This document shows positions 10,509 through 56,848 of a DNA stretch of 64,000 nucleotides, one piece after another (within the stretch, counting starts at the first letter, position 1; each line of letters opens with the position of its first letter). The position numbers and the translations under genes were made by a program. The stretch comes from an uncultured Verrucomicrobiae bacterium. GTDB lineage: Bacteria; Verrucomicrobiota; Verrucomicrobiia; Limisphaerales; UBA11358. The DNA lies in assembly GCA_963769285.1 (NCBI GenBank), contig CAVYLE010000008.1:9723-73722 (forward strand), written 5' to 3'. The notes beneath the pieces were generated by a model that was not told the origin of the DNA, did no database searches, and saw only the letters and a list, made by a program, of their open reading frames with translations.

Positions 10509-10874
10509 ATGAGCGGGAGACTTACAGAAGAATTTAGAGCGCGAACCAAGTTGTTTGCGGCACAGTCCATACGCCTGTATGTAAAGGTGCCGAAGGATCG
10601 GGAAGAGGTGAGGGTGTGCGGAAAGCAAATGTTGAGGGCTGGTACGTCTGTTGCAGCTCACACTCGCGAAGCGTCTCGCGCCAGGTCAGACGCTGAATTT
10701 ATCTCCAAGCTCGGTGGCAGCCTCCAAGAGGCAGACGAAACCCAAATGTGGCTGGAGTTGCTCCGCGAGGAATGTGGGATCGCCTCGGTTGACACTCTGC
10801 CCATGGAAAAAGAAGCCGATGAACTCATGGCCATCATGACCACGATGATCAACAAGACCAAAGGTAAAAGCTGA
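10509..10874 (+). CDS. four-helix-bundle protein (23S rRNA intervening-sequence protein family)
   Basis: 121 aa. FAAQSIRLYVKVPKDREEVRVCGKQMLRAGTSVAAHTREASRARSDAEFISKLGGSLQEADETQMWLELL is the typical signature of this family. Confidence 0.8.
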   Translation: MSGRLTEEFRARTKLFAAQSIRLYVKVPKDREEVRVCGKQMLRAGTSVAAHTREASRARSDAEFISKLGGSLQEADETQMWLELLREECGIASVDTLPMEKEADELMAIMTTMINKTKGKS

Positions 10875-26247: not shown

Positions 26248-26408
26248 TTTTGGGTTCGGAAAGCAAATAGATCAGCTAGGCCGAATCAGATTGTGCTCCA
26301 CAACCGCCGTCACTTTTGCTATAAAGCGACAGACTGGCGGCAAGCCGGTGTCAGATTGACTTGTCAGCGGTGAATCGCGAAGCAAACGATACAAGCGAAT
26401 ATCAGAGA

Positions 26409-37241: not shown

Positions 37242-38906
37242 ATGCGTAAGCTGATAATAATTTTCTTGTGCTGCACAGTGGCCTTGCTGGCGGGGTACGC
37301 CGGTTATCGCGGCTACAAAGTCTGGAAACAGAATCGTATGATGAACCTCGCGCACACCTTCGCTGCCAGGGGGGACAGCCGAAATGTGTTGCTCTGCGTG
37401 CAGCAGGTCTTGCGCTCCAATCCCCGGCATCTGGAAGCCTCCCGGATGATGGCCGCGTTGCTGGAGGCCGGCCGCTCGCCCAGCGCTCTGCTTTGGCGCA
37501 GCCGCGTGGTCGAACTCAATCCGCGCTCGCTGGATGACCGGCTGGCCCTGGCCCAGAGCGCCATGGTGTTCCGCGATTACATGGACGCCACCAATGCTCT
37601 GGAGGGAGTGGACCCGGCCGGCAGGAAAACCGCCGCCTACCAGAATATTGCCGGCGCCGTGGCCGCCGCCGCCAATCAGCGTGCGGAAGCCGAGGCGCAC
37701 TTTCTTGAAGCCGCCCGGCTTGAGCCGACCAACCCGGTTCCGCAATTGAACCTGGCGGTCGTGCGCCTCCACGGCACCAATGCGTCAGCCATGGCCGAAG
37801 CACGTACCACGCTCATGAGCATTTCTTCATCCAGCCCCGCCTTGCGCTGCCAGGCCTTGCGCGAACTCGTGGTGGACGCCATGGGCTCCAGGCAGACGAA
37901 TACGGCTTTGGCTTTGTCCAAGGAATTGGTGCAGCAGACCAACTCGACTTTCAGCGACCGGCTCTTGCGGCTGGACGTGCTGAAAGGAAGCCAAAATGCC
38001 GAATTCAAACCCGCGCTGGCCGCCTTTCAGCGCGAGGCCGGGACGAACACGGCAAAGATTTATGAACTGAGCATTTGGCAAATGACCAGGATTGGCTCTA
38101 AAGACACATTGGTCTGGCTGCAGAGCCTGCCCAGGAACCTGCAGACAAACCAACCGGTGGAACTGTTGGCTGCCGAGTGCCATACGTTGCTGGGGGATTG
38201 GCGCGGGCTGAATGGCGCCCTCACAAATCAGAACTGGGGCGAATTGGAGTTCGTCCGCCACGCGTTCCAGACTCGCGCCCTGCGCGGGCAGGACTTGAGT
38301 GGCGCGGCGACAGCGGAGTGGGAACTGGCATTGAAAACCGCCAACGGCCAGAAGGCGAGTTTGGTAATGTTACTCCGGCTGGCGGCGCAATGGGGCTGGC
38401 AGAGCGATGCCGAGAAACTACTCTGGACCATCGTTAACCAGTATCCCGGCGAGCAATGGGCCTTCCGCGCGTTGACCCAGGCGTTGTATGCCGGCGGCCG
38501 AACGCGGCCCTTGATGATGCTTTTCAGCCAGCAGGTGAAAAGGTCTCCGTCAGATCTTGGAGCCAGGAACAATCTGGCCATGACCGCGCTTCTCCTCGAC
38601 GCGCAGGAACTGAAACCGCACGAGTTGGCGCGTGAAGTGTACGGGAAGGCGCCCACCAACTCGGCCTACGTTTCCACCTGCGCGTTTTCCCTCCACCTGC
38701 AAAAGAAAGACGCCGAGGCGCTCAAGGTGATCGAGCAGCTCAAACCGCAGGAGCTTCAGAACCCTTCAATCGCGGGTTACTACGGCCTGATTCTGAAGGC
38801 GACGGGCAATGCCGCCAAAGCGAAGACCTACCTCGAACTTGCTTTCAAAGCCCCGTTGCTGCCGGAAGAGCGGAAGCTCTTTGACCAGGCAAAGGCCGGA
38901 ATGTAG
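37242..38906 (+). CDS. membrane-anchored TPR-repeat protein
   Basis: N-terminal TM MRKLIIIFLCCTVALLAGYAGY, then repeated Ala/Leu-rich TPR-like helices to the C-terminus. Last gene of the plus-strand EPS block. Confidence 0.7.
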   Translation: MRKLIIIFLCCTVALLAGYAGYRGYKVWKQNRMMNLAHTFAARGDSRNVLLCVQQVLRSNPRHLEASRMMAALLEAGRSPSALLWRSRVVELNPRSLDDRLALAQSAMVFRDYMDATNALEGVDPAGRKTAAYQNIAGAVAAAANQRAEAEAHFLEAARLEPTNPVPQLNLAVVRLHGTNASAMAEARTTLMSISSSSPALRCQALRELVVDAMGSRQTNTALALSKELVQQTNSTFSDRLLRLDVLKGSQNAEFKPALAAFQREAGTNTAKIYELSIWQMTRIGSKDTLVWLQSLPRNLQTNQPVELLAAECHTLLGDWRGLNGALTNQNWGELEFVRHAFQTRALRGQDLSGAATAEWELALKTANGQKASLVMLLRLAAQWGWQSDAEKLLWTIVNQYPGEQWAFRALTQALYAGGRTRPLMMLFSQQVKRSPSDLGARNNLAMTALLLDAQELKPHELAREVYGKAPTNSAYVSTCAFSLHLQKKDAEALKVIEQLKPQELQNPSIAGYYGLILKATGNAAKAKTYLELAFKAPLLPEERKLFDQAKAGM

Positions 38907-42576: not shown

Positions 42577-42937
42577 AGTGGTTCACTATGCATAAGGCTT
42601 GCCAACCTGCCGGCGGTCACGCGTAAAATTTTTGGAAACGGGTGACAAACTTTGGGACAAGGGGAACTCCTGAATTGATACAGAAACCAATGCTTTCAGC
42701 GCGGAAGTTAAATATTAGCAATTATATTTTTAGCCGCCATGGCTTAATTATTAGCGGTATTCCGGTTCCGGTTCCGATGAACAAATCTTCAAGACAGAGG
42801 TTGTCTTGAAAAAGAGCAGTGATAAATGCAAGTCACACGAGCCGGCTGGATGCAAGGCGCATCCGATTGCGCCCCAATCGGGAACGGACTGGGCAGCGCG
42901 AACGCCGCATCCAAAGCGGCGGAGCAACGCCGCACTC

Positions 42938-42972
42938 CAAAAGCAATCAGGCCGGTCGTGAAGACCGGCCTG
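42938..42972 (-). terminator. conserved terminator hairpin after PEP-CTERM gene 1
   Basis: caggccggtc-gtgaa-gaccggcctg, followed on the minus strand by ATTGCTTTTGG. The same hairpin is at 44284-44308 and 47100-47124. Confidence 0.7.
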
Positions 42973-43013
42973 AACGCTAGAGAAGGCTCTTAAAAATCCG
43001 ACTTGATCAATTG

Positions 43014-43715
43014 TTACGCCATTTGTCGCTTGCGCAAGATCCGCAGCGTGCTCGCGCCAAACGGCAGCAGCAGCAACGCGCCCGCGATCATCGTCGTAGG
43101 CTCGGGAACGGGGAATATGGTGATCGAATCGATGTTTGCGCTCGCGGGGATAGTGGCGGTGCCGTTATTCCAATCGCCGATCTCGACAGCGGTCTCATAG
43201 ACCGTCATCTGCCCAAACGTAGTAGTTCCGTATGCGGTGCTGTCAAGCGTTGACAGGGTAACACCCCAGTACGTGTCCGAGGTGAGAGGACTCGTAGCGT
43301 AATCATAAAACACATGGATTTGGGAAGAACCGTTCAGATCCGGTCCGCCCATGCTGATGACCCCGATGTAACCACCGCCGGGCGCATACAGATAGGTAAG
43401 CCAGTAAGGTTGAGCCCCATTTGGCCCGCTCGAACTGAGAAGATCGTAACTCGCGCTGAAAGAGTTTAAAGTTCCCAGTGAAGGAAGCCCAACGTTAGCA
43501 GCCTTGACAAAGACTGCCGGGGCACCGCCATTGAGACCGGAGTCGGTGGTGTAAAGTTGCGCCACGTCCGGTGTCCCGGCGACATATTGCGCGACACCAC
43601 CATTACCAGAGTATTTCAAGCCGCTAAGATCGGTGCCCGAAATGGTGATCAACGCGCTGGCGCTCATTGCGGCGGCCAAACTGATCGTGAATAATGCTAT
43701 TTGTAGTTTTTTCAT
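43014..43715 (-). CDS. PEP-CTERM sorting-domain protein (class 1 tail)
   Basis: ATG 43715 inside ORF 43014..43778. MKKLQIALFTISLAAAMSASA signal. C-terminus VPEPTTMIAGALLLLPFGASTLRILRKRQMA. Confidence 0.85.
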   Translation of the reverse strand: MKKLQIALFTISLAAAMSASALITISGTDLSGLKYSGNGGVAQYVAGTPDVAQLYTTDSGLNGGAPAVFVKAANVGLPSLGTLNSFSASYDLLSSSGPNGAQPYWLTYLYAPGGGYIGVISMGGPDLNGSSQIHVFYDYATSPLTSDTYWGVTLSTLDSTAYGTTTFGQMTVYETAVEIGDWNNGTATIPASANIDSITIFPVPEPTTMIAGALLLLPFGASTLRILRKRQMA

Positions 43716-43855
43716 GTTTTCTTTTTTATTTTTGGACCGCTGCGGAAAGCGACTTCTGGCTTGACGTCCAAGCCACAACTCATTCTTTCACGCGAGTGGG
43801 TATGGTTTCTTCAAACTGACTAATCTCTGCCCATTGTGCAGAACGCATTGAATTT

Positions 43856-43894
43856 ATCTATACGTTTTTGGGACATCATTAGTCACTTTTCGGA
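43856..43894. promoter_or_regulatory. conserved promoter/operator module, copy 1
   Basis: atctat-N7-tgggacatcattagtcacttttcgga. About 140-180 nt upstream of ATG 43715. Confidence 0.6.
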
Positions 43895-44273
43895 TATAGA
43901 TTCTGAGCGGCCCGGACTTCCCTGCGTTGCTTGAAAAGGACATGCGGGACTTGGTCACAAATTTAAAACTGCCCAGTGAAGTCGCAAACCGAAGAACTTC
44001 ACGGGCCTCGGCCCATGAAGCAGGCAGCCCACTTTCACAGGCCAAGGCAAGCGGACCCGCCTACGTCCAACTTCGGCGCGGCAAGAAGCTGAAATTACAA
44101 AATCAAAAGCTGAAACCGGAGTGCCGGGAGGGCGGAGGCCAGCGGAGAAAAAACTGAAATTGTGAAAGCTGAAATCTGAAATCAGAGACGAGTGGGTCTT
44201 TCAGCTTTCAAGTTTCAGCATTTTCCAACCGGGCACGTCAGTGCCGCGGAACTTGTGCGCAGTGGTCAAGTCC

Positions 44274-44308
44274 GGAAAGGAATCAGGCCGGTCGTGAAGA
44301 CCGGCCTG
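44274..44308 (-). terminator. conserved terminator hairpin after PEP-CTERM gene 2
   Basis: caggccggtc-gtgaa-gaccggcctg, identical to 42948-42972. About 40 nt beyond the stop codon. Confidence 0.65.
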
Positions 44309-44349
44309 ATCGCTAAAGAAGGCTCTTAAAAATCCGACTTGATCAATTG

Positions 44350-45168
44350 TTACGCCATTTGTCGCTTGCGCAAGATCCGCAGCGTGCTCGCCCCAAATGG
44401 CAGCAGTAGCAACGCACCCGCGATCATCGTCGTGGGTTCGGGAACAGGCACAGGTACGGCGTCCACCTTGACGAGCATATCCTGATAGTCAACGTCCCCG
44501 CCTTGCAACGCAAGATCTTCCCATCCCAAAAGGTACTCACCCGGATCCCATGACTCAGTTGTCGAGCCGGAAGCTGCCCAGCTGCCGAGGCCAGAGGCGC
44601 TCAGATTTAACGTACGATCCACAGCGGTTTGCAAAGTTACCATGTGATCGTCACCACCATTTTTGTTCTGTTGAGAATACCATGTCGGGCCACCCGCTGT
44701 TTGAAGGTAAAACCCGAAGGCGCTTCCAACATAGAGGCTCTGATTATTCACGGTGGCCGTGCCACCTGAGAATGTCACGGTCTCCGTGGATACGCCGGAA
44801 GCAGAACCCGTAAACACCTGGAGCATTTGACCGTTATTCAGGTTATAAATCCCGAATGAATTGATACCGGCATTCCCGGCAATCTCCAGCAGCAACGCGG
44901 TAGAAGCCGTCCCACTGCCGAGGATGCCCGGGACCGTCCACGTCTGATCCGTAACCGGGCTGTTGTAATCCGCGACCCGGTTCGCTGCGGCATTGACGTC
45001 GTAGGAAGAGTCGTTCAGCAAAGTCTGCATGACGGTAGCCAAAGTGCCCGGAGGATTCCCGTCCCAACTGCCCGAGGTGGCCACCGTCGTAAGGGCTGCT
45101 TGTGCACACAATGTCGCGCCGGCCAAACCCAAGGCTGATATTGCCAATTGAAATTTCAGCATTTTCAT
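44350..45168 (-). CDS. PEP-CTERM sorting-domain protein with a DUF4114-like segment
   Basis: MKMLKFQLAISALGLAGATLCAQA signal; GGDVDYQDMLVKVDAV; C-terminus VPEPTTMIAGALLLLPFGASTLRILRKRQMA. Confidence 0.85.
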   Translation of the reverse strand: MKMLKFQLAISALGLAGATLCAQAALTTVATSGSWDGNPPGTLATVMQTLLNDSSYDVNAAANRVADYNSPVTDQTWTVPGILGSGTASTALLLEIAGNAGINSFGIYNLNNGQMLQVFTGSASGVSTETVTFSGGTATVNNQSLYVGSAFGFYLQTAGGPTWYSQQNKNGGDDHMVTLQTAVDRTLNLSASGLGSWAASGSTTESWDPGEYLLGWEDLALQGGDVDYQDMLVKVDAVPVPVPEPTTMIAGALLLLPFGASTLRILRKRQMA

Positions 45169-45320
45169 ATTTTCCTTTTGATTTTTGTTTTATTGTGACC
45201 CTCGTGAAAAACGACTTCTGGCTTGACGTCTTAGCCAGAATTCATTCCTTCACGCGATCGGTCTAATTCTCTGCAAACTGAGTTTGTACACTGGCCATCG
45301 TCCACGAATAATGGAATTAC

Positions 45321-45360
45321 ATCTATCCCATTTTGGGACTTCTTTATTCACAATTGGGCC
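45321..45360. promoter_or_regulatory. conserved promoter/operator module, copy 2
   Basis: atctat-N7-tgggacttctttattcacaattgggcc. About 155-190 nt upstream of ATG 45168 and about 340 nt upstream of the divergent DUF4184-like gene. Confidence 0.6.
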
Positions 45361-45695
45361 ATGCATTCTGAGCGGCCCGGACTTCCCTGCATTGCTTGAA
45401 AGGGACATGCTTTGATCACTTTTGGGACGTGGGCCAAAATGAAAAGCTGAAATCGGGAAAGCAGAAAGCAGAAATCACAATGCAATCAAAAGCTGGGGGT
45501 ACGGGGAAGAGGTGGAAAGCGGGGGAAAGGCTGAAGGCTGAAAGCCGCGCAAAAGGCTTCGCCTCACGCGGTGGGGGAATATCCAACATCCAATAACAGA
45601 TGCCGAAGGGTGGAAGGCTGAAGTCAAAGGTCCGTGGTCTGCAACTCAAATCGGGCTGGTCGTTTCACAGTTTTGCCGCCAATTTCGATCCGTCA

Positions 45696-46157
45696 ATGCC
45701 TTTTCCACTGGCTCACCCAGCAGCGATCCTGCCGTTGCGGCGTTATTGCCCGCGGTATCTCAGTTTTCCTGCGCTCATCATCGGCAGCCTCAGCCCGGAT
45801 GTGGGCTATTTCTTCGGGCACTTTCGTCTCGGAGAGTTCTCCCACCGGCTGCTCCCGGGCAGTTTCGGGTTCTGCCTGCCGGTGGGCCTGGTGCTGGTGC
45901 TGGTGTTTTATATCGCCCGGTTGCCAGTGGTTGGCATCCTGCTTTCCAGCGACCGGCGGGCGTTCCTGCCGCTTTGCCAGCGACCGGCCGGCTCTCCGTT
46001 TCTGATCGTCAGCCCGATCCTCTTTATTGCTCTGGCCAGTCGCGGCGCGCATCAGTTGATTGGGATTGTTCCCGCCGGGATCATTACCGTCCTGCTGCTG
46101 ATTGGATTTCTCCTGGCTACCGGAAAACTCTTCAGCCGGATTCGGGGCCTGACATGA
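45696..46157 (+). CDS. DUF4184-like membrane protein
   Basis: ATG 45696 inside ORF 45600..46157. MPFPLAHPAAILPLRRY..LSFPALIIGSLSPDVGYFFGH resembles the DUF4184 N-terminus as I recall it. Shorter than typical members. Confidence 0.5.
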   Translation: MPFPLAHPAAILPLRRYCPRYLSFPALIIGSLSPDVGYFFGHFRLGEFSHRLLPGSFGFCLPVGLVLVLVFYIARLPVVGILLSSDRRAFLPLCQRPAGSPFLIVSPILFIALASRGAHQLIGIVPAGIITVLLLIGFLLATGKLFSRIRGLT

Positions 46158-46186
46158 AGGTCTTTCAGCCTTCAGCATTTTCCCCC

Positions 46187-46711
46187 TCAGGTGAGCTCGA
46201 GCAGGTCGGCGTCGAGCTTGACGGCTGCCGCCTGACCGATGAAGTCGAGGCGCAGCAACACGGTGGTCCGACCGTAACGATGTTCGACCCAACCCTCAAC
46301 ACCGCGCAGCGGGCCGGCTTTGATGCGCACGCGCATACCCTCGCCGATGGACGGGGCCAGACGCACTTCCAAATCCGTTTCCAAGGCCAGGAGAATATCT
46401 TCCAACTGCCGGCGAAGCGTTTCCTGATCGAACACGTCGAGGAGATTGGCGACATGGCCGTTTTGGCGGACAGCATCCTTCTGTCCGGGTTCAAGTTGAA
46501 GAAAGACATACCCGGGGAAGAGCGGCTTCTGGAACACGACCGTCTTGCCGCGATATTTATGCGCGGACTGGTAGCAAGGGAGCGTAGCGGCGATGCCGTG
46601 TCGCCGGCAGTGCTCGACCAGCTTTTTCTCCCGTCGCGGTCTGGTATGGGCCACGAACCAACGCAGTTCTGACACGGGGCGAAGAATTCGGGAGAAATTC
46701 CACGATGTCAA
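46187..46711 (-). CDS. NusG-family paralog (RfaH/UpxY-like specialised antiterminator)
   Basis: NGN domain WFVAHTRPRREKKLVEHCRRHGI..PLFPGYVFLQL and KOW motif GMRVRIKAGPLRGVEGWVE. The track start is TTG 46711; GTG 46678 is an alternative. Confidence 0.8.
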   Translation of the reverse strand: MTSWNFSRILRPVSELRWFVAHTRPRREKKLVEHCRRHGIAATLPCYQSAHKYRGKTVVFQKPLFPGYVFLQLEPGQKDAVRQNGHVANLLDVFDQETLRRQLEDILLALETDLEVRLAPSIGEGMRVRIKAGPLRGVEGWVEHRYGRTTVLLRLDFIGQAAAVKLDADLLELT

Positions 46712-46800
46712 TCCGAAGTTGCGAAGTTGCGAAGTTGCGCGTTCGTGCCGCGGCGGCAGCGGTGGCGCATCCGCGGGGCGTGTTGCCCAAATCTGAATCG

Positions 46801-46871
46801 GGTGGGGCGAGCATCCTCGCGAGCCGGGATTTCATACAAAACAAGCGGCTCGTCAGTAGCCTCGCCCCACC
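46801..46871. repeat. GGTGGGGCGAG...CTCGCCCCACC element (family copy 2)
   Basis: ggtggggcgagcatcctcgcgagccgg...cggctcgtcagtagcctcgccccacc. Its arms reappear in inverted order in 51026-51133. Confidence 0.7.
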
Positions 46872-47088
46872 AAAAAGTCCCGGAAATGATCAGGGTAGCA
46901 TGCCCCGCGCACTGCCCCCGAACGTAACAAGATTGGAGCGCGGCTGTCTCCGATTTATCGGGGCAGCCGAAGCATGTTGAAAAGCGCTACGGCCCCAAGT
47001 GCATTCCAACAGGCTGGTTTTGCGAAGCTGCTGCGGCTGGTCCCGACAAAGCGGGACACAACCGCGCTCCGGTGGCCATGTGCCGCCC

Positions 47089-47124
47089 TAAAAAAGAATC
47101 AGGCCGGTCGTGAAGACCGGCCTG
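47089..47124 (-). terminator. conserved terminator hairpin after the two-gene PEP-CTERM operon
   Basis: caggccggtc-gtgaa-gaccggcctg, followed on the minus strand by ATTCTTTTTTAG. Confidence 0.75.
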
Positions 47125-47165
47125 AGCAGTAAACAGTGATTCTAGACTCCGACTTGGTCCAGCTT

Positions 47166-47864
47166 TTATGCTGTGCGGTTCTTGCGCAGAATCCGCAGCG
47201 TGCTTGCCCCAAAAGGCAGCAGCAGCAACGCGCCGGCAATCATTGTGGTAACCTCAGGAATTTGTTCGAACGATTGTTCAATTTGAGAAACAGTAACGAA
47301 ACCGCCATTGACGATACCAAAACCAATGTCTTTGGTTATAATCAGCGTTTGTTGAGGAGGAATGATTGACAAAATGTCACCTGCCTCTGCAAAAGGATCG
47401 CTAAGGTCAGTCGCGCTCAGAGCGCTGTGACCGATGGCCGTCACACTCCCTGGAACGTAAGCATTTTCGACAATCGAAAGGTATGCTCCCCCCGCTGGCT
47501 GTGCACTGCCCGTATAACTTTGGTCAATCGCAATGATTTTCCCGGGGTTCGCTGTTACGGTGTAGCCGAGCAAAAGATCCGCAGTAGCCGGCCCGCCACT
47601 TACGAGGCTGATATTTCCTCCCCACGTGAGGGTATAATAATCAGGAGTCACTTCCGTCGCTGTAACTAAAATATTGGCGGCACTAAACGTAGTCAAGCCA
47701 CTCTCGTTGTAGGAGAACCCGCTAAACGTTTTATCGCCAATGCTCAGACTCGCGCCATTCGCAAGGTTAGCCAACGTATCCGTAACAAAACTCGCTTGAG
47801 CTGTTTGTATCATCGCGGCCATGGCTATCACACTAGCCATAGCAATTAGATTTTTTCGTATCAT
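47166..47864 (-). CDS. PEP-CTERM-type protein with a variant PEV motif (paralog of 47922..48611)
   Basis: MIRKNLIAMASVIAMAAMIQTAQA signal. C-terminus IPEVTTMIAGALLLLPFGASTLRILRKNRTA. Body alignable to the upstream paralog. Confidence 0.8.
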   Translation of the reverse strand: MIRKNLIAMASVIAMAAMIQTAQASFVTDTLANLANGASLSIGDKTFSGFSYNESGLTTFSAANILVTATEVTPDYYTLTWGGNISLVSGGPATADLLLGYTVTANPGKIIAIDQSYTGSAQPAGGAYLSIVENAYVPGSVTAIGHSALSATDLSDPFAEAGDILSIIPPQQTLIITKDIGFGIVNGGFVTVSQIEQSFEQIPEVTTMIAGALLLLPFGASTLRILRKNRTA

Positions 47865-47921
47865 ATTTACCTTTCTGTTTACTGATATTCGCTGTTTTTA
47901 TTTTTTCCCGTTGTATAACTT

Positions 47922-48611
47922 TTACGCCGTGCGGTTCTTGCGCAAAATGCGCAGCGTGCTCGCCCCAAACGGCAGCAGCAGCAACGCGCCCGCGATCATC
48001 GTCGTAGGCTCAGGAACCACCTGATGGAACGATTGTGTGACCTGAGAAATAGTAATATAACCCCCGTTTGGAGAAGTCACACCAAAGGCAATGTCTTTGG
48101 TTACATAGAGAACACTCTCCGGAGGAATGATATCGAGAAGATCGGATGCTTCTGCTGGTGGATCGCTCATGTCGCCGACCTGAAGGTGGCTGAATCCGGC
48201 CACCCTCCCGCCAAAAGCTCCAACGGCCGCTGTTTCGTCAACTGCGATCAATCCATTGATGGCACTGCCTGTATAAGCCTGGTCAATCTTATTAATCACC
48301 CCACCATTCGCGGTCACAATATAGTTAAGTACCAAGTCAGCAGTACCAACACCACCAGAAACATAAGATATGTTACCTGACCAAGTAAGATAATCAATCC
48401 CGCCACTTTCAGTCGCTGTGACAATAATTTTGTTGGGATCAAAGGAAGTCAAACCACTGGGGAGATAACTGAAGCCGCTGAAGGTTTTATCGTCAATGGT
48501 GAGAGTCCCACCGGCAGCAAGCTGAGCCAACGTAATGCTCGCTTGAACTGTTGGTATCATCGCCACCATGGTAGTCACGGCGAAGATGACAATTAATCTG
48601 TTTCGTATCAT
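47922..48611 (-). CDS. PEP-CTERM sorting-domain protein (class 1 tail)
   Basis: MIRNRLIVIFAVTTMVAMIPTVQA signal. C-terminus VPEPTTMIAGALLLLPFGASTLRILRKNRTA. Only 57 bp and no hairpin before the next gene. Confidence 0.85.
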   Translation of the reverse strand: MIRNRLIVIFAVTTMVAMIPTVQASITLAQLAAGGTLTIDDKTFSGFSYLPSGLTSFDPNKIIVTATESGGIDYLTWSGNISYVSGGVGTADLVLNYIVTANGGVINKIDQAYTGSAINGLIAVDETAAVGAFGGRVAGFSHLQVGDMSDPPAEASDLLDIIPPESVLYVTKDIAFGVTSPNGGYITISQVTQSFHQVVPEPTTMIAGALLLLPFGASTLRILRKNRTA

Positions 48612-48722
48612 ACGTGTCCCTTACTGACTTACCGTTTTTCCCGTCGTGTGTTTTACGCTGTTAAAATTTCCGGCCTAACTCTTGGTTTATTTTTGATATT
48701 TTTACGCCTTTTCTCTCTGATA

Positions 48723-48762
48723 GTCTATCGCATTTCGGGACATCTTTGCTCACAAATAGGAC
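48723..48762. promoter_or_regulatory. conserved promoter/operator module, copy 3
   Basis: gtctat-N7-cgggacatctttgctcacaaataggac. About 110-150 nt upstream of ATG 48611. Confidence 0.6.
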
Positions 48763-49075
48763 ATTGAGGACATGGACTCTGAGCGGCCCGGACTTTGCTA
48801 AGTTGCATGAAACGGACACACTTTATCACTTTTAGGACATAAGCCCAAATTAAAGCTGAAATCAGGGCCCAGTGAAGTGGTTGAAGACATCACGGGCCTC
48901 GGCCAATGAAGTAGGCAGCCTACTTCACTGGCCAAGGAAAGCAGACCCGCCTGCGTCCAACTTCGGCGCGGCAAGAAGCAGAAATCACAATGAAATCAAA
49001 AGCTGGCAGGACGGGAAAGAGGCGGAGAGCGTGCTGTGTGCGCTGACTGAGCCTTATGACAAATCATTCCAGTCA

Positions 49076-49106
49076 ATTTTGGGACTTTCGTATTCACAAA
49101 CAGGAC
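49076..49106. promoter_or_regulatory. conserved box, copy 4 (flanking hexamer degenerate)
   Basis: attttgggactttcgtattcacaaacaggac. About 130 nt upstream of the plus-strand Gloeo_Verruco gene, in the same absolute orientation as the other copies. Confidence 0.5.
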
Positions 49107-49236
49107 AAAAGACTCGAATAACCTTGCAATTTTGAGCTTCGGTGGCACTATCGCCATGTTTCTAACATTAGAAGGTTTGAAGTACGACGTCCCGGCCCCC
49201 CCAAAGGGTGCTCAAACGCCAAAACGAGAGATTCAA

Positions 49237-50607
49237 ATGATCAAATCGCCCCGAATTCTTATAGTTGGCATCGCTGCCGTGTGGCTGATTCTCCCACGCG
49301 TGGAGGCTGGTGTTTCCCTCACCCCCCTGGTCTCCTTCGGTGGCAGCAACGGCGCCAACCCCGTCGCGGGCTTGGTGCAGGGCAAAGATGGCAATTTTTA
49401 TGGCACAACCACCGTAGGCGGCGCGAACGGCTTTGGTTCGCTGTTCCAATTGACTCTCCCGGGCACGCTCGCCACGTTGATTTCGTTCGATAGAACCAAC
49501 AACGGCGCCAATCCCGGCGCTGCGCTGGTGCAGGGCAGTGACGACGCCTTCTATGGCACGACCGACAATGGCGGCGCGAACGATTACGGCACAATATTCA
49601 AAGTCACGACCAATGGCACGCTGACCACGCTGGTTTCTTTTAATGCCACCAATGGTTCCCAGCCGCACGCGTCCTTGGTGCAGGGCCAGGACGGCAAATT
49701 CTACGGCACGACAGAAACCGGTGGCGCCAACCAGGAGGGCACGGGGTTTCAAATGCTCCCAAATGGGACGCTCACTTCACTCGTCTCGTTCGGTGACAAC
49801 GGCTACAGTCCGCACGCCGGCCTGGTGCAAGCTGCCGATGGCAATTTCTATGGCACCGCATACCTGGGCGGCACGAGCGGCCTTGGCGCGATTTTCCGGA
49901 TCACGACCAACGGCGCGCTCACCATGCTCTACTCCTTCACCGGCGGCAGTGATGGCGCGAAACCTTATGCCGGGCTGACGCAAGGCGCCGATGGCAAGTT
50001 GTATGGCACTACATACTCCGGTGGCGCCAATGGTTATGGCACCGTTTTTAAGATGACCACCAACGGCACACTCACCCCGCTGGCGTCTTTCGGCGGCACG
50101 AATGGCACCCACCCGCAAGCGGCCCTGCTGCTGGCCAGCGATGGCAATTTCTACGGCACGACCAAAAGCGGCGGCGCGTACACGAACGAATCCGTCTCCG
50201 GAGACGGCACGGCATTTAAGCTGACAACCAATGGCACGCTCACGACGTTGATCTCCTTCGATGGGACCAACGGTGCCAATCCACAAGGCGGGCTGGTGCA
50301 GGGTGCCGATGGCAATTTATATGGCACGACTGCCAATGGTGGCGCGAGCGGCGATGGGACCATTTTCCGGCTGGCGTTCCCACCACTGCCGAGTTTTCTT
50401 GCGGTGGAGGAAACGGGCGCCACACTTGCGTTGACCTGGAGCGCGACGACGGGGGAAACTTATCAGATGCTGTACAAGACCAATCTGAATCAGATCAACT
50501 GGAACAATCTCGGCTCGACCATCATCGCGACCAATGCATCCATGACGACGCTCGATGCCACAGGCCCGGACCAGCAACGGTTTTATCGGATCGAGCTGCT
50601 GCACTAA
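49237..50607 (+). CDS. Gloeo_Verruco (GloVer) repeat protein with a C-terminal QRFYR domain
   Basis: ATG 49237 inside ORF 49132..50607. Signal MIKSPRILIVGIAAVWLILPRVEA. Seven units G.NGANP.AGLVQG.DGNFYGTT..GGANG.GT.F..T.NGTLT.L.SF. No PEP-CTERM tail. Confidence 0.85.
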   Translation: MIKSPRILIVGIAAVWLILPRVEAGVSLTPLVSFGGSNGANPVAGLVQGKDGNFYGTTTVGGANGFGSLFQLTLPGTLATLISFDRTNNGANPGAALVQGSDDAFYGTTDNGGANDYGTIFKVTTNGTLTTLVSFNATNGSQPHASLVQGQDGKFYGTTETGGANQEGTGFQMLPNGTLTSLVSFGDNGYSPHAGLVQAADGNFYGTAYLGGTSGLGAIFRITTNGALTMLYSFTGGSDGAKPYAGLTQGADGKLYGTTYSGGANGYGTVFKMTTNGTLTPLASFGGTNGTHPQAALLLASDGNFYGTTKSGGAYTNESVSGDGTAFKLTTNGTLTTLISFDGTNGANPQGGLVQGADGNLYGTTANGGASGDGTIFRLAFPPLPSFLAVEETGATLALTWSATTGETYQMLYKTNLNQINWNNLGSTIIATNASMTTLDATGPDQQRFYRIELLH

Positions 50608-50724
50608 CAGCCCGTTGAAAAACGTCTTCTCTCGCAGCAGCCGAGGTAACGAGGCTCAAATTTCCTTGGAAACAACCATTCATTCAGAGCCGCCTCACGT
50701 CGGCTGTACTTCTTTAACGGGCTG
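50608..50724. repeat. TIR-bounded structured element (family copy B, inverted) directly after the GloVer stop codon
   Basis: cagcccgttgaaaaacgtc...gaggctcaaatttccttggaaac...cttctttaacgggctg. Confidence 0.8.
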
Positions 50725-50839
50725 TTAAGCCTGGACATTTCACTGTCTTTGTAACTGCCGACGTGAGGCGGAGTTGCAGGGGGTGAACCCGGTTGGGTGG
50801 GACACGTCAGTCGAGTTTGTCTCAAAATAATTTCTGGTC

Positions 50840-50912
50840 GGAGGGGCGAGTTACACGAGCCCCATTTTCAGCGGCATTCTATGAGTCAGGGGCTCGTGTA
50901 ACTCGCCCCTCC
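50840..50912. repeat. perfect 24-bp inverted repeat (hairpin) with a 25-nt loop
   Basis: ggaggggcgagttacacgagcccc-N25-ggggctcgtgtaactcgcccctcc. Confidence 0.85.
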
Positions 50913-51025
50913 GATGTCCCGTCCTCTGCGCACCGCGACTGTCAACCGCCGCGTTCTGGTTTTTCCTGATGGCGCTCCCGGAGTGACGTGGCCCCACCTG
51001 GTAGTGGGTTAGTTTGAGCTAAATT

Positions 51026-51133
51026 GGTGGGGCGAGGCTACTGACGAGCCGATTTTGATAGCAGATCCCATCAGTTCCGGCTCGCGAGGATCAGCCTTCG
51101 CCAAGCTACGGCGCGACAGGCGCTCGCCCCACC
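51026..51133. repeat. GGTGGGGCGAG...CTCGCCCCACC element (family copy 3)
   Basis: ggtggggcgaggctactgacgagccg...ccggctcgcgaggatc...cgctcgccccacc. Confidence 0.7.
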
Positions 51134-51221
51134 AAAGTAGTCCACTACTCCTACCGTTGTCGGTTCGTGGGCAAGAGGTATGGGTTTCGAAAACTCGAGG
51201 AATGCAAATGGTCGAACTGCC

Positions 51222-51256
51222 GCAAAAAAATCAGGCCGGCGTTTAAAGCCGGCCTG
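51222..51256 (-). terminator. terminator hairpin after PEP-CTERM gene 5
   Basis: caggccggc-gtttaaa-gccggcctg, followed on the minus strand by ATTTTTTTGCG. Confidence 0.75.
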
Positions 51257-51295
51257 AAGCAACTGAAGCCTGTGAAAAAACCGGGCTGGTCAACT

Positions 51296-52015
51296 TTATG
51301 CCGCGCGATTCCTGCGCAAGATCCGCAGCGTGCTCGCCCCAAACGGCAGCAGCAGCAACGCACCCGCGATCATCGTCGTAGGCTCAGGAACAATAGCCAA
51401 CTGGTCCTGATTGAGTTCATAAGTTTGGCCACTTGGATTCTGGACGTCTGTGTAGTATGCCCCGTTGAAGAGGTTCAGGGCGATCACACCATACGCTCCA
51501 AGGGAATCATTGAAGACGGTCGTGTCGTTCTTGCCTGTCCCAGTTTTAGCAAGGTTATAGTAGTAGGTTCCATCAACACCATTCATAGTGCTCAGTTGGG
51601 CAAAGGTTATTTCATTCTCAAGATACCAAATAGCGTTCTGAACTTGACCCGCTTGTGAAGCGGTCAATGTCCCCAACCCTCCATTCCGGAATTGGCTGTA
51701 AAGATAGGCTGTGCCAATCGAAATATTGTCCATCGGGAGACCCGTGTTCGGATCGATCGCGTCCACACCTGCACCGCCGGCCACAGCACCGGTATTCATT
51801 TTATACTGGTACGTATTCCCTGGGCCAAACTCCTCCTGGTACTCGATGCAGAACGTCTGGAATGTGCCGAGGCCCGTAGTCGCAGCCGTGAACTCACCGC
51901 CGTTACCCCAGGAATAGGCACCCTGAGTCAGGGTAACCGATCCATCGAAACTGGCATACAAGTTGGTTGCGAAGAGAACGCCTGCAATCCCGATTAACGT
52001 AGATAACTTTTTCAT
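51296..52015 (-). CDS. PEP-CTERM sorting-domain protein (class 1 tail)
   Basis: ATG 52015 inside ORF 51296..52081. MKKLSTLIGIAGVLFATNLYA signal. C-terminus VPEPTTMIAGALLLLPFGASTLRILRRNRAA. Confidence 0.85.
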   Translation of the reverse strand: MKKLSTLIGIAGVLFATNLYASFDGSVTLTQGAYSWGNGGEFTAATTGLGTFQTFCIEYQEEFGPGNTYQYKMNTGAVAGGAGVDAIDPNTGLPMDNISIGTAYLYSQFRNGGLGTLTASQAGQVQNAIWYLENEITFAQLSTMNGVDGTYYYNLAKTGTGKNDTTVFNDSLGAYGVIALNLFNGAYYTDVQNPSGQTYELNQDQLAIVPEPTTMIAGALLLLPFGASTLRILRRNRAA

Positions 52016-52116
52016 ATTTTTCTTCTGTTTGATTATTCGCTCGCGCGATGGATTTATAAATTCCAATTCTTTCCGTCTCAAATGTCTTTTCTTTTATATA
52101 CGTTAATCTCGAGCGC

Positions 52117-52157
52117 GTCAATGCCAAAATGGGACATCTTTGTACACTTTTGAGACA
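52117..52157. promoter_or_regulatory. conserved promoter/operator module, copy 5
   Basis: gtcaat-N7-tgggacatctttgtacacttttgagac. About 100-140 nt upstream of ATG 52015. Confidence 0.6.
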
Positions 52158-52341: not shown

Positions 52342-52707
52342 ATTGCCGTCGCCCAAGTCTCAACTGCTCGAACAAGGAATGCAAAATTGACTTTTGACAA
52401 GCCAACCATAACAAATTAAAATGGTGTAAGTTATAAACCGGCTGAAGGTTGGGAGGGCCGGATTACTGTTGCAGGATGTCAAGAGCTACGGAAGCACAAG
52501 CTTCGTCCATCGGGAAACGGACCGCTCATGCTGTCCGCAGCGAATCGGGCGACGGTAAGCTGATTAAATGTTTGGCTGCTGGAAGACGAGCGCGAGTGAA
52601 GTCAAAGCAATTTCCGATTGGGGGATCCCGTCACCTGTGGATGCCATGCAGAGTGCCAAGAATGTAGCTGAAATGAGACGTTCGCTGAAAGCTTGTGAAA
52701 AAACGCT

Positions 52708-53388
52708 ATGGTTGAAACTTTAAAAGGTAAATCCCCATCACCACAAACGATTTTCATCGTGGAGGATCACCCGGTCTTTCGCGAAGGTTTGGCGCAGCTT
52801 GTAAAAGCCGAGCAGGATTTGACTGTATCCGGGCAGGCGGGTGACGCCGCCCAGGCCATCCCGGCCATCGCCCGTCTAAAACCGGATCTGGTGTTGGTGG
52901 ATATCACTCTACCTGGAAAAAGCGGACTGGAATTGATCAAAGAACTTCGGTCCCAAAACAGCCGGATCAAGCTGCTGGTTGTCTCCATGCACGATGAGGC
53001 GCTTTACGCCGACAGGGTCCTGCGAGCCGGCGGTGACGGCTACATCATGAAACAGGAAGATCCGCAGGAGATCATCCGCGCCATTCGGGATGTTCTTGGC
53101 GGACACACCTATGTCAGTGAACAGGTGATGGCAGGCAGATCAACGATTTCCCAGGAGCGCCGCTCCAAGGCGAAAACCCGGCCGCTTGAAAAGCTCACGG
53201 ACTCAGAGATCGAAATCCTGGCATTGCTTGGCCAGGGCAAAGGCAACCTGGAAATCGCCCAACAACTCCACTTAAGTGATGCAACCGTCTCCACTCACTG
53301 CACACAGATCCAAAAAAAGCTGCACTTGAAGTGCTTGAACGCGCTGATTCGCTACGCGGTCTGCTGGGCGGAAACAGGCCCTTCGTAA
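52708..53388 (+). CDS. NarL/LuxR-family response regulator (REC plus HTH)
   Basis: IFIVEDHPVFREGL..DLVLVDITLPGKSGLELI..; LTDSEIEILALLGQGKGNLEIAQQLHLSDATVSTH. Confidence 0.9.
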   Translation: MVETLKGKSPSPQTIFIVEDHPVFREGLAQLVKAEQDLTVSGQAGDAAQAIPAIARLKPDLVLVDITLPGKSGLELIKELRSQNSRIKLLVVSMHDEALYADRVLRAGGDGYIMKQEDPQEIIRAIRDVLGGHTYVSEQVMAGRSTISQERRSKAKTRPLEKLTDSEIEILALLGQGKGNLEIAQQLHLSDATVSTHCTQIQKKLHLKCLNALIRYAVCWAETGPS

Positions 53389-53433: not shown

Positions 53434-56400
53434 TCAGCCAGCCCCTCCACACGGCACACGCACAGTGATGGTTGTGCCTTGCTTGGGCGCGGATTCCACC
53501 GTGCAGGTTCCGCCCAAAAACTCAGCCCGTTCGCGCATATTTGTGAGGCCGATTCCACGCCGTTTCCCCTTGCCAGCCTTGCCTCGCTTGGAATCAAATC
53601 CCCGCCCATCGTCCTGGATTTTCAAGACGATGGAATTGCCGTGGAATGCGATCCGGAGCCGGACCTCCCTGGCGTGGGCATGTTTTTCGATATTATTGAC
53701 AGCCTCCTGCATGATGCGAAAGAGATTCAGTTCAAGCGCCGGGGCCAGGCGTTGGTCAATACGTGCGATGCTGTATTTCACCTTCAACTTTGTCCGCGAC
53801 CGCAGCTCCTCGCAGAAATTGCGGGAGGCGGCGGCCAACCCGAACTCATCCAGGTCACTGGGGCGGAGGTTGTGTGCGATGCGGCGGTTTTCCTCCAGCG
53901 CCTGAACGAGCAGCCGGCTGCAGCGCGCGAGGATTTCCCTGGCCGCGGGGTTTAGCGACACCTCACCGGCTTCCACCTTGCGGAGCCTCATTTTTGCAGA
54001 AGCAATGAGTTGGTTGACTCCGTCATGCAATTCGCGCGCCACGCGCAAACGCTCCGCTTCCTGCGCCTCGATGATGCGCAGAGGCAAAAGCCGCAGCTCT
54101 TCTTCGACTCGTTTGCGTTCAGTAATATCGCTGGCTACACCAATGAGTCCAATAGTTCTGCCTTCGTTGTTCTTGATGGCAGAAGTGCTGAGTGAAATCG
54201 GGAATTCAGTTCCATCTTTTCTGTGGTTCAGGAGTTCGCCCTGCCAGGAGCCCCCGAGAGTCTGCCGGAAAATGTGCTCGCAAAGCCCGGGCGGATTCTT
54301 CGGCGACTGAAGAAAATCCGGGTTCCTTCCCAAGACTTCCTCCTGGCGATAGCCGTAGGCTTTAACGAAACTCTGATTGACAAAGGTGAAACGGTTTTCG
54401 CTGTCGGTAATACAAATGAGATCCCGGGCGCTTTGAACCGCGTAGGCCAGCAACCGAATTTGTTCCTCCGCCCGCTTGCGCTCGGTGATGTCTTGCGCCA
54501 CTCCCACTAATCCAATAAGGCGGCCATCCGGATTCACGATTTTGGAAGTGCTCAGAAAGACCGGGAATTCCGTCCCGTCTTTCCGGCGGTCCAACACCTC
54601 GCCGCGCCAGCCGTCAAGGCGGGTTTGCTCCAGAATCTCTGATAACAGCGTCGGTGGATTGTTCGGAGAAAAGAGTATGTCCGGGGTTTTTCCCAAAATC
54701 TCCGCCTCCGTATAACCGTAGGCCTGCCAAAAGGCGCGGTTCACAAATGTGAACCGATCCTCCAGGTCCGTGATGCAAATCATTTCGGCCGTGCTTTCGA
54801 CAGCGTGAGCCAGCATCGCCACCTGCGCTTCTGCGCGCTTGCGCTCGGTGATGTCCTGGATGGTCCCCTCGAAATATTGAACGGCACCGCTGGCATCATA
54901 AACGACGTGCGCGTTCAAGCTGACCGAGATTATGCTGCCGTCTTTGCGGTAATTTTCCTCTTCAAATCCTCGAATCGTCCCTTGTTCCAGCAGCAAACGT
55001 TTCATTTCCGCCCGTTTTTCGAGTGAGACATAAATCTGCCGGCCGACATCGGCCACGCTGGACATCATTTCCTGGGGCGACTGGTACCCGAACATCCGGG
55101 CCAATGCCGGGTTGGCGATGAGGATACGGCCTTCCGGCGTCGTCCGAAAGATTCCTTCGGTTGCGTTCTCGAAGATACTGCGGTACCGGGCCTCCGCATT
55201 CCGCAACGCATCCTCCGTTTCCTTGCGCCGGGTAATGTCGCGCATGAAAGCGAACACGCAGGGCTCCCGCAATTGGAGAAACGTCGCGATGACTTCCACC
55301 TCGATGATCCGTCCATCTTTGCAGCGGTGGCGGGTCTCGAAACGGTCGCTCCCGGATTGGGTAATGCGTTGTGCGTGTTGGACGACCAGTTCCGGAGAAG
55401 GCTCGTTGACCTCCACATCGCTGGTGTGCATGGAAAGCAATTCCTGGCGGGAATAACCGCTCATGCGGCAGTATGCCTCGTTCACGTCCACGATATTCCC
55501 TTCAAGATCCAGCATCCAGAAACCCTCCATCGCGGCGCCAATGATTTTTTGGCTCAATTCCTCGTGTTCCTTGAGCGCCTCCTCGGTTCGCTTCTGCCTG
55601 GTGAGATCGGTATTGATGCACACCACGCTCGCGGACTGATCCTTCTCCCCAGGCACCAATGTCCACCGGCTGTAAACGATGAGCGGCTGGCGGGCCTTGG
55701 TCAATATATGCAACTCGCCATCCCATTCGCCGGCTTGCATCAGTTTCTCCTGCGCTTCGGCAAATGTCGCAGCGTCCTCAAAAAATAAATCCGTGGTGCG
55801 GCGTTCCCGGACTTCGTTCGCAGTCCAACCCAAAATCCGCTCGGCCCCTTTATTGAAATAATGAATGCGCCCTTCCAGGTCGTGGATGATGATCGCATCG
55901 TGTGCTTGATCGAGAATATGCAACAGTTCCCGGATCCTGGCTTCGGCCTGCTGCCGCGCAGTAATGTCACGCATCACAACGACGATCCCGCGGGATTGGC
56001 TGTCCGCGCCGGTTGACACGGCGGCACTTAATTCCACCGGGAAACGGCTGCCATTTTTCCTGAGCATCGTGTACTCAGCGTTTCTCATGACGCCGGTTTC
56101 GAGCATGATGGTTGTGCCCGCCTTCATGCGCTCATGCTCCTCTGGCGGCGTCAAGTCGAAGGCGCTTTTCCACAGCAATTCCCCCGGGCCCGCATAACCG
56201 AGCATTTCCACGGCCTGCTGGTTGGCCATAGTCAGCCGGCCTCGGAGGTTGATCATGCCAACGGCGTCAGGCAGGATTTCAACCAACCGCCGATAATGTT
56301 GTTCGCTGGCCCGCAATGCGGCGGTGGTGTCGCGGAGACGCACGATCGTTCGAATGCGCGCCAGGAATTCATCCGGGTTCACTGGTTTGACCATGTAGTC

Positions 56401-56709
56401 ATCGGCGCCTGTTTTCGCGGCATCGACCTTGTCGGCGGCGCTGGTCGCCATTCCGGAAACCAGAACGACAAAAATGTCCAATAATGCCGCGTCGGCCTTG
56501 ATTTGCCTGCAGATGTCAATCCCGTTCAGGTCCGGCAGCCTTACGTCCAGCAGCACCAGATCCGGCCGCCTTTCGCGCGTCATCTGGAGACACTGCTGCC
56601 CGTTCGACGCCTCCCAAACTTCGTAACCTGCACGGCGCAGAATCATTGAAAAAACTTCAAGGATGTCGGGTTCATCATCCACAACGAGAATGCGGGTCGC
56701 TCTATTCAT
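53434..56709 (-). CDS. hybrid sensor kinase: N-terminal REC, six PAS domains, HisKA_3, HATPase
   Basis: ATG 56709 inside ORF 53434..56763. ILVVDDEPDILE..LVLLDVRLPDLNG. Six PAS units, each ending in D(I/L)T.(R/Q)(K/Q) (DITARQ, DLTRQK, DITRRK, DITERK x3). H-box ELHDGVNQLIA. GIGLTNMRERAEFLGG. Confidence 0.9.
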   Translation of the reverse strand: MNRATRILVVDDEPDILEVFSMILRRAGYEVWEASNGQQCLQMTRERRPDLVLLDVRLPDLNGIDICRQIKADAALLDIFVVLVSGMATSAADKVDAAKTGADDYMVKPVNPDEFLARIRTIVRLRDTTAALRASEQHYRRLVEILPDAVGMINLRGRLTMANQQAVEMLGYAGPGELLWKSAFDLTPPEEHERMKAGTTIMLETGVMRNAEYTMLRKNGSRFPVELSAAVSTGADSQSRGIVVVMRDITARQQAEARIRELLHILDQAHDAIIIHDLEGRIHYFNKGAERILGWTANEVRERRTTDLFFEDAATFAEAQEKLMQAGEWDGELHILTKARQPLIVYSRWTLVPGEKDQSASVVCINTDLTRQKRTEEALKEHEELSQKIIGAAMEGFWMLDLEGNIVDVNEAYCRMSGYSRQELLSMHTSDVEVNEPSPELVVQHAQRITQSGSDRFETRHRCKDGRIIEVEVIATFLQLREPCVFAFMRDITRRKETEDALRNAEARYRSIFENATEGIFRTTPEGRILIANPALARMFGYQSPQEMMSSVADVGRQIYVSLEKRAEMKRLLLEQGTIRGFEEENYRKDGSIISVSLNAHVVYDASGAVQYFEGTIQDITERKRAEAQVAMLAHAVESTAEMICITDLEDRFTFVNRAFWQAYGYTEAEILGKTPDILFSPNNPPTLLSEILEQTRLDGWRGEVLDRRKDGTEFPVFLSTSKIVNPDGRLIGLVGVAQDITERKRAEEQIRLLAYAVQSARDLICITDSENRFTFVNQSFVKAYGYRQEEVLGRNPDFLQSPKNPPGLCEHIFRQTLGGSWQGELLNHRKDGTEFPISLSTSAIKNNEGRTIGLIGVASDITERKRVEEELRLLPLRIIEAQEAERLRVARELHDGVNQLIASAKMRLRKVEAGEVSLNPAAREILARCSRLLVQALEENRRIAHNLRPSDLDEFGLAAASRNFCEELRSRTKLKVKYSIARIDQRLAPALELNLFRIMQEAVNNIEKHAHAREVRLRIAFHGNSIVLKIQDDGRGFDSKRGKAGKGKRRGIGLTNMRERAEFLGGTCTVESAPKQGTTITVRVPCGGAG

Positions 56710-56848
56710 GGGGTGACACTTGCTTGGTTCACAAACCACAGACCATATAGCTGGCTGCCTCAAAAAGGCAAATGCTGAAATGAACTACGAGCCCGAAGCG
56801 GGAGTATTTGCGCCGGGCCGCGCGCGCGACAGGTTTATTCCGCCAACC

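Follow-up and report, generated by a model that had tools for sequence, protein, structure and literature searches.

A conserved GTCCC/GTGA/GATAGA box upstream of PEP-CTERM protein genes as a probable factor-dependent promoter module in uncultured Verrucomicrobiota

Many bacteria of soils, sediments and biofilms have PEP-CTERM/exosortase systems, whose regulation is understood solely for the σ54/PrsR type of Proteobacteria. How the genes of such a system are controlled in another phylum is the question raised by a 64,000-nt stretch of DNA from an uncultured Verrucomicrobiae bacterium (assembly GCA_963769285.1, contig CAVYLE010000008.1, positions 9,723 to 73,722 of the forward strand; the whole stretch is referred to here as the window), in which a cluster of genes for PEP-CTERM-tailed secreted proteins is accompanied by five copies of one short sequence, hereafter the box. 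Neither a dispersed repeat nor an RNA, the box is a cis element specific to one regulon, and it is probably a factor-dependent promoter module of certain Verrucomicrobiota, in which the site of a transcription factor would adjoin a weak σ70-type −35 element, with a −10 element downstream, and would serve activation. It provides a sequence-level handle on uncultured peat and soil Verrucomicrobiota, since it predicts co-expressed secreted exosortase substrates, ties them to an AraC-type gene and a PAS-rich sensor kinase, and leaves two concrete regulator candidates and the exact bases to mutate; the finding is useful rather than surprising, a dedicated factor site before a gene family being a familiar design.

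Four full boxes precede five minus-strand genes that form four transcription units (43014–52015). The encoded proteins are secreted, 229–272 amino acids (aa) long, and end in a common tail, ...VPEPTTMIAGALLLLPFGASTLRILRK...; the tails align to the full TIGR02595 model (positions 1–24 of 24), scoring 15.1 and 13.4 bits where the cut-off is 16, many homologues of the proteins carry PF07589, and an exosortase gene lies in the window at 33308–35065. The genes and the copies of the box are listed below; the scores are those of the position matrix described after the list.

43014–43715, minus strand: PEP-CTERM-tailed secreted-protein gene
44350–45168, minus strand: PEP-CTERM-tailed secreted-protein gene (DUF4114/PEP-CTERM)
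47166–47864, minus strand: PEP-CTERM-tailed secreted-protein gene, in an operon with the next
47922–48611, minus strand: PEP-CTERM-tailed secreted-protein gene
51296–52015, minus strand: PEP-CTERM-tailed secreted-protein gene
43857–43895, minus strand: box 1, upstream of the PEP-CTERM gene 43014–43715; ATCCGAAAAGTGACTAATGATGTCCCAAAAACGTATAGA; 37.4 bits; predicted −35 TAGATA (43855–43860), spacer 16, predicted −10 CACAAT (43833–43838)
45322–45360, minus strand: box 2, upstream of the DUF4114/PEP-CTERM gene 44350–45168; GGCCCAATTGTGAATAAAGAAGTCCCAAAATGGGATAGA; 53.3 bits; predicted −35 TAGATG (45320–45325), spacer 17, predicted −10 GACGAT (45297–45302)
45403–45428, minus strand: distal unit of the box 2 promoter, without GATAGA, 68 bp upstream of the proximal unit; GTCCCAAAAGTGATCAAAGCATGTCC
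48724–48762, minus strand: box 3, upstream of the two-gene PEP-CTERM operon 47922–48611 and 47166–47864; GTCCTATTTGTGAGCAAAGATGTCCCGAAATGCGATAGA; 44.3 bits; a match to the strict pattern; predicted −35 TAGACT (48722–48727), spacer 17, predicted −10 TAAAAAT (48698–48704)
48813–48838, minus strand: distal unit of the box 3 promoter, without GATAGA, 76 bp upstream of the proximal unit; GTCCTAAAAGTGATAAAGTGTGTCCG; 17.6 bits
49081–49106, minus strand: copy 4, a 26-nt unit without GATAGA; GTCCTGTTTGTGAATACGAAAGTCCC, then AAAATTGACT
52118–52156, minus strand: box 5, upstream of the PEP-CTERM gene 51296–52015 and divergent from a response-regulator gene; GTCTCAAAAGTGTACAAAGATGTCCCATTTTGGCATTGA; 28.2 bits; predicted −35 TTGACG (52116–52121), spacer 15–17, predicted −10 TATATAAA (52093–52100)

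The five copies of the original prediction are confirmed at their positions, and all are in minus orientation. Allowing up to three mismatches, the core pattern has 12 matches in the window against 2.8 expected, the top five being these copies. A position matrix built solely from instances outside this genome scores the five at 21.6–53.3 bits in its 39-nt version, and nothing else in the 64 kb passes; in shuffled windows the top score of the same matrix is 10.5 bits. A sequence at 42629–42658 that had been put forward as a weaker look-alike has negative matrix scores and is not a box. Read on the gene strand, the layout is GTCC(C)-N4-GTGA-N8-GTCCC-N7-GATAGA, and the consensus of 116 unique instances is GTCCCAAWWGTGAMTAAAGATGTCCCAnnATGGGATAGA. 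An AT conserved at 91–95% precedes the second GTCCC, thus the core is a direct ATGTCCC repeat with a 21-bp period (motif positions 1 and 22). The shared module, proposed to span about 40 bp, does exist but is longer than that in three promoters, which have distal units (degenerate in promoter 1) and, between the distal and proximal sites, the sequence AAGTCCGGGCCGCTCAGA, identical across promoters 1, 2, and 3. It had also been thought to precede every transcription unit of the cluster, which is true of the four PEP-CTERM units and not of a NusG-like gene (46187–46711) or the giant repeat gene, both of which lack a box. Distances from the ATAGA end to the start codon are 141, 153, 112, and 102 nt for the four full boxes.

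The spread of the box was followed in other genomes and metagenome contigs, whose comparison loci carry L-numbers here. The strict 19-base pattern (38 bits) was matched 33 times in species-representative genomes totalling 596 Gb, where 4.3 matches would be expected, and all but three chance-like ones are in Verrucomicrobiota metagenome-assembled genomes (MAGs) or in contigs with the same gene content; a metagenome scan with this pattern gave at least 120 loci, most of the listed contigs being JGI metagenome records. The box marks PEP-CTERM genes in many uncultured soil and peat Verrucomicrobiota. Unique strict instances number 135. Contig ends account for 25 of them, and a further 13 were excluded because they resembled chance matches (seven loci) or because no long open reading frame (ORF) follows them; a same-strand ORF with a PEP-CTERM-type tail comes next in 81 of the ~97 assessable instances and one with a variant tail in ~10 more, and the distance from box to tail-bearing ORF is roughly 50–210 nt. 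Counted from the genes, all loci together contain 189 tail-bearing ORFs; 144 of them are preceded by a unit at no more than 400 nt, and another 26 lie in operons headed by one (170/189), in a sample that is biased because most loci were fetched via a box. In a syntenic metagenome contig with 79% protein identity (L001), the GTCC, GTGA, GTCCC, and GATAGA elements are kept before the PEP-CTERM units and the N7 spacer is free (AAAATGG vs. GGGGCGG). No box lies within 20 kb of a homologue with 57% identity in a different Verrucomicrobiae MAG (L004), so the box follows the lineage or regulon and not the protein family.

The original prediction had called the orientation of the box ambiguous and had allowed for a dispersed repeat. 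In more than 100 instances elsewhere the orientation to the downstream gene is constant, and a 4.6-Mb contig holds just two strict copies, both in a single cluster. This gene association and scarcity settle the orientation, the window's boxes reading toward the minus-strand PEP-CTERM genes, and exclude a dispersed repeat or miniature inverted-repeat transposable element; the idea of a shared transcriptional control module is borne out.

Hexamers resembling a −10 element (second base A, sixth base T, and four or more of six bases as in TATAAT, at offsets 17–21 after GATAGA) are present in 32 of 76 non-redundant instances against a background of 7.9% (P ~4e-16), with a peak 18–20 nt after GATAGA, and positions +20 to +23 after GATAGA are 55–74% A. 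When T(A/T)GAnn is taken as a −35 hexamer, the spacer to the −10-like hexamer is 17±1. The ATAGA position also reads ATTGA/TTGAC, with TTGACG in copy 5.

In addition, the unit occurs without GATAGA. Copy 4 lies 132 nt before the start codon (49238) of the GloVer-repeat gene and points away from it, and units without GATAGA stand beside GloVer genes in the same position and orientation in six other genomes (L001, L007, L019, L032, L135, and L137), thus copy 4 is not the relic it had been suggested to be. Three tandem 21-bp repeats of the unit are found upstream of an AraC-family gene in L015. Distal units without GATAGA accompany 16 of 114 boxes in other loci, six of them at 67–78 bp upstream; with only these 16, a distal second unit was rejected as a general feature.

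Taken together, the downstream −10 peak, the tolerance of ATTGA, and the units without ATAGA make the box look like an upstream factor site plus a weak −35, and the earlier view of GTGA-N18-ATAGAT as a −35/−10 pair is probably wrong. In its full form, that view has an alternative sigma factor recognise the whole promoter within the box: GTGAnn would be the −35 and (G)ATAGA(T) the −10, separated by 18 nt of conserved sequence that may double as an operator. The GTGA–GATAGA spacing is indeed rigid in all instances, GATAGA is often preceded by TGG as in an extended −10, and variants upstream of AraC-family genes read TATAAA or TATAGA at this place; an alternative-sigma promoter is nonetheless unlikely, since a separate, better −10-like hexamer recurs above background further downstream, at the canonical distance, units lacking GATAGA exist, and recurrent neighbours include no sigma or anti-sigma gene, RpoD being alone in the window. 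Elements at −10 of the σ70 family normally need a T at the last position, which GATAGA does not have. The same features separate the box from promoters of extracytoplasmic function (ECF) sigma factors.

In the preferred reading of a factor-dependent promoter, a dedicated transcription factor would bind the upstream 26 nt (two direct ATGTCCC repeats 21 bp apart, with GTGA between them), which would span roughly −70 to −45 and touch the −35. T(A/T)GA and the next two bases would form a weak σ70-type −35, followed 17±1 nt further by a tAAAAt-like −10, and transcription would start ~31 nt after GATAGA, giving predicted leaders of roughly 70–120 nt in the window. The factor would most likely recruit RNA polymerase, that is, act by activation, and would jointly switch on the short genes of the PEP-CTERM-tailed secreted proteins (exosortase substrates), a CheY-like gene, and, via a variant box, an AraC-type gene. 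Distances from box to start codon of 15–49 nt were all traced to spurious N-terminal ORF extensions, so nothing contradicts a start at ~31 nt after GATAGA. A near-consensus σ70 promoter is present in the window before the regulator gene (TTGACA-17-TAAAAT, 52394–52422), and a generic σ70 scan does not list the box promoters because TAGAnn is below its threshold.

Two candidates for the factor are encoded in the window, one beside the boxes and one at the head of the polysaccharide locus:

52708–53388, plus strand: NarL/LuxR-type response regulator, candidate box-binding protein
53434–56763, minus strand: hybrid sensor kinase with a receiver domain, six PAS domains, HisKA_3, and HATPase, presumed partner of the regulator
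3255–4331, plus strand: AraC-family regulator, first gene of the polysaccharide/exosortase locus; second candidate and probable regulon member
2801–2839, plus strand: variant box, ~415 nt upstream of the AraC-family gene; GTCCTGAATATGATATGTAATGTCCTTTTTATGTATAAA; weak, 6.3 bits

Recurrent neighbours of the box are the NarL-type regulator, its kinase, a NusG paralogue, GloVer proteins, an AraC-family protein, DUF4184, and a CheY-like single-domain regulator. Orthologues of the NarL-type regulator adjoin boxes in nine box-anchored loci. The earlier proposal of this LuxR/NarL-type protein as binding candidate was sensible, and adjacency favours it; of three orthologues sampled independently of the box, two have a divergent box 292–295 nt upstream and the third has one 2.4 kb away. 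Synteny of kinase and regulator is kept in L001, L019, L032, L151, and L153. AraC orthologues, for their part, are always the first gene of a polysaccharide/exosortase locus, and a variant box lies 90–600 nt upstream on the same strand in all three that were sampled (L154, L155, and L156) as well as in the window, L073, L009, and L015; variant boxes before the genes that head this locus suggest that the regulon joins the exosortase substrates to the polysaccharide locus. A full box is predicted to drive the CheY-like gene in L155 and L015, and one genome has the kinase, regulator, CheY-like gene, AraC gene, and polysaccharide locus in one uninterrupted stretch. Bipartite direct repeats with a 21-bp period, the proximal one reaching the −35, resemble the classical layout of AraC/XylS sites. 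The factor could quite possibly be the adjacent pair of PAS kinase and NarL-type regulator; it is possibly the AraC-type protein, and conceivably something else.

Two observations concern the fringes of this regulon. Near the regulator orthologue of L152, a box with TATAGA (13099–13124, minus) precedes a signal peptidase I (Peptidase_S26) gene, which could be a member outside the PEP-CTERM genes. A non-coding leader of ~400 nt (2840–3254 in the window) separates the variant box from the AraC start codon; L154 and L155 conserve it well, L139 and L146 lack it, and Rfam has no match to it. It may be a leader RNA or a further control region.

Several points weigh against a factor-dependent σ70-type promoter. 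No hexamer with A2, T6, and at least 3/6 matches is found at offsets 17–21 in 26 of the 76 instances, and 44 lack one with at least 4/6. GATAGA is conserved more strongly than a typical −35, a surplus ascribed here to a second half-site of the factor; its conservation is partly imposed, the loci having been fetched by requiring GATAGA, and among 78 units found without that requirement 36 carry NAT(A/T)GA. The promoter geometry is a statistical inference from sequence, and all hosts are uncultured MAGs. As to the factor, gene-anchored sampling leaves the NarL-type and AraC-type candidates both linked to the box with neither singled out, and the recognition helix of the NarL-type regulator, SDATVSTHCTQI, presumably lacks the base-contacting residues of DosR.

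The same site could instead be the operator of a repressor that holds the PEP-CTERM genes off until a signal arrives. It abuts the predicted −35, which makes occlusion geometrically possible, and a dyad in relatives of the box 2 promoter makes negative control of some members plausible. Set against this are the weak −35 (TAGAnn), the position of the site mostly upstream of the −35, and the extra units 67–78 bp further upstream. A weak −35 with upstream-lying sites and additional upstream units is typical of activated promoters, and repression is quite unlikely. The dyad itself, a TTCCAT-N5-ATGGAA inverted repeat that fills the predicted −35/−10 spacer in L013, L022, L007, and L019 and is degenerate in the window (45303–45319), may be an additional operator.

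Very unlikely, too, is that the box is the complete recognition element of an undescribed initiation system for Verrucomicrobiota exosortase substrates, the −10-like signal then being secondary; a holoenzyme or accessory factor would in that case read GTGA/GTCCC/GATAGA directly, perhaps with the NusG-like paralogue.

That paralogue also figures in a further alternative, in which the box is transcribed and works in the leader as an ops-like recruitment or pause site, or as a structured RNA. An UpxY/RfaH-like gene (46187–46711) is conserved beside boxes in 13 loci, and the distances from box to start codon are long. The sole possible hairpin (TCCCA/TGGGA) shows no covariation, however, its pairing being no commoner than expected from the marginal column frequencies, Rfam has no match at the gathering score or at E ≤1, the downstream −10 signal implies that the box is not transcribed, and no recurrent promoter signal precedes it, all of which makes a leader element highly improbable. 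That the similarity is a functionless by-product of recent duplication or of a dispersed repeat is scarcely credible: the window's promoters do share flanks, a ~140-bp repeated element, and identical terminators, but copy 5 has only the box in common with the other promoters, the box is kept in genomes whose proteins are just 50–60% identical and whose spacers and flanks have diverged, and the pattern of few strict copies per genome, always gene-directed, contradicts it.

The ~140-bp element, which contains CGTCCAACTTCGGCGCGGCAAG and a GTGAAGT...ACTTCAC hairpin, is found at 43996–44100 and 48887–48990, upstream of two box promoters, and beside boxes in seven other loci. Arrays of 7–8-nt repeats (GCTGAAA on the plus strand; TTTCAGC/TTTTAGC on the gene strand) likewise lie upstream of boxes at 44150–44219 and 45457–45542, and in L021 and L023 (distant MAG, SPRUCE 402). 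The minus-strand leaders, predicted 5′ untranslated regions, contain conserved hairpins at 43757–43777, 45218–45238, and ~45273–45287; the GGCTTGGACGTCAAGCC type is found close to the start codons of genes 1 and 2, in L001 too, and the GCAAACTCAGTTTGC type where mRNAs of the gene 2 family are predicted to begin.

The closest known parallel is the proteobacterial PEP-CTERM box, an upstream site made of an enhancer motif (motif 1) and a σ54 −24/−12 motif (motif 2) that goes with PrsK/PrsR/PrsT; of the species discussed in that work, the proteobacterial ones alone have these motifs (Haft et al., 2006; PMC1569441). Both boxes are a single signature before most PEP-CTERM genes (here, all four PEP-CTERM units of the window and the 170 of 189 tail-bearing ORFs above), mostly in single-gene units with long non-coding upstream regions, and both are linked to an exosortase/polysaccharide locus and a two-component system. 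In contrast to the proteobacterial box, the present one has an unrelated sequence, no −24/−12 element, a promoter that looks σ70-type, and NarL-type and AraC-type regulators in place of a σ54 enhancer-binding protein. No PrsR-like protein is found among 30 window proteins scanned or the recurrent neighbours, and a TPR protein (37242–38906) has a weak match to PrsT (61 bits; cut-off 312). The σ54 element TGGCAC-N5-TTGCW, at up to two mismatches, has 35 matches in the window vs. 41.7 expected, none of them in gene orientation between a box and its gene. One sequence, TGGTACGTCTGTTGCA (10640–10655, plus), is one mismatch from the σ54 consensus and lies in the intergenic region before a polysaccharide-locus gene at 11070; as the pattern is not enriched overall, this match could be due to chance. 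The box is thus described here as the Verrucomicrobial, non-σ54 counterpart of the proteobacterial PEP-CTERM box, with the same role, an unrelated sequence, and other regulators; full-text literature searches found no description of a Verrucomicrobial equivalent.

Promoters activated by AraC/XylS-type proteins (araBAD I1–I2; Pm of XylS) have bipartite half-sites of ~15–17 bp in direct repeat with a 21-bp period, the proximal one reaching a weak −35. The box shares the bipartite half-sites and the direct repeats at this period (ATGTCCC at positions 1 and 22, and the three tandem repeats of L015), the proximal repeat at a weak −35, an AraC-family gene with its own variant box and, statistically, a −35/−10 pair at canonical spacing downstream (32/76 vs. 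7.9%). It differs in that 40 kb separate the boxes from the AraC-type gene in the window, the half-site sequence is unrelated to known AraC/XylS sites, and the regulator is only a candidate binder. Sites of NarL/LuxR activators that overlap the −35 include the lux box, the NarL heptamers, and the DosR box. As with these, a NarL-type regulator and kinase are encoded divergently beside the box in many loci, and GTCCC-N5-GGGAT forms an imperfect inverted repeat whose centre would fall near −42 under the proposed promoter layout. Direct rather than inverted symmetry dominates, however, and only ~71–72% of instances keep the G at the two free positions of the second arm. DosR is a NarL-family protein that reads GGGAC, and a DosR-like reading by the regulator was considered and rejected, its recognition helix presumably differing from that of DosR.

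Besides the PEP-CTERM cluster, the window contains a 28-kb polysaccharide locus with the exosortase and the PrsT-like TPR protein, the gene of the GloVer-repeat protein, and the RpoD gene. Inside the polysaccharide operon, a choice-of-anchor E protein (26361–27092, plus) has a divergent PEP-CTERM-like tail and no box.

The NusG-like gene within the PEP-CTERM cluster (46187–46711, minus; E 5.5e-21) is conserved at 75–97% identity in the 13 box-containing loci, and the 28-kb polysaccharide operon is a plausible target of its product. A tandem repeat of three CGAAGTTG units lies just upstream of its start (46714–46739). Plus-strand readout toward a “DUF4184-like” gene, which had been thought possible, is not supported, as most of the 308-aa ORF concerned (45746–46672, plus) is the antisense shadow of the NusG-like gene: identities to relatives are 93, 78, 81, and 75% in the NusG-like frame vs. 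84, 54, 49, and 47% in the antisense frame. The real DUF4184 gene is truncated (45600–46157, plus; 185 aa) and covers only profile positions 1–80 of 229.

Finally, a terminator scan places a terminator-like hairpin after three of the four PEP-CTERM transcription units. A hairpin of the form TCAGGCCGG...CCGGCCTGA follows each unit (42947–42973, 44283–44309, 47099–47125, and 51231–51257); the copy at 44283–44309 appears only in the repeat family and the other three in the terminator scan, and the sequence is identical at three sites and slightly diverged at 51231–51257.

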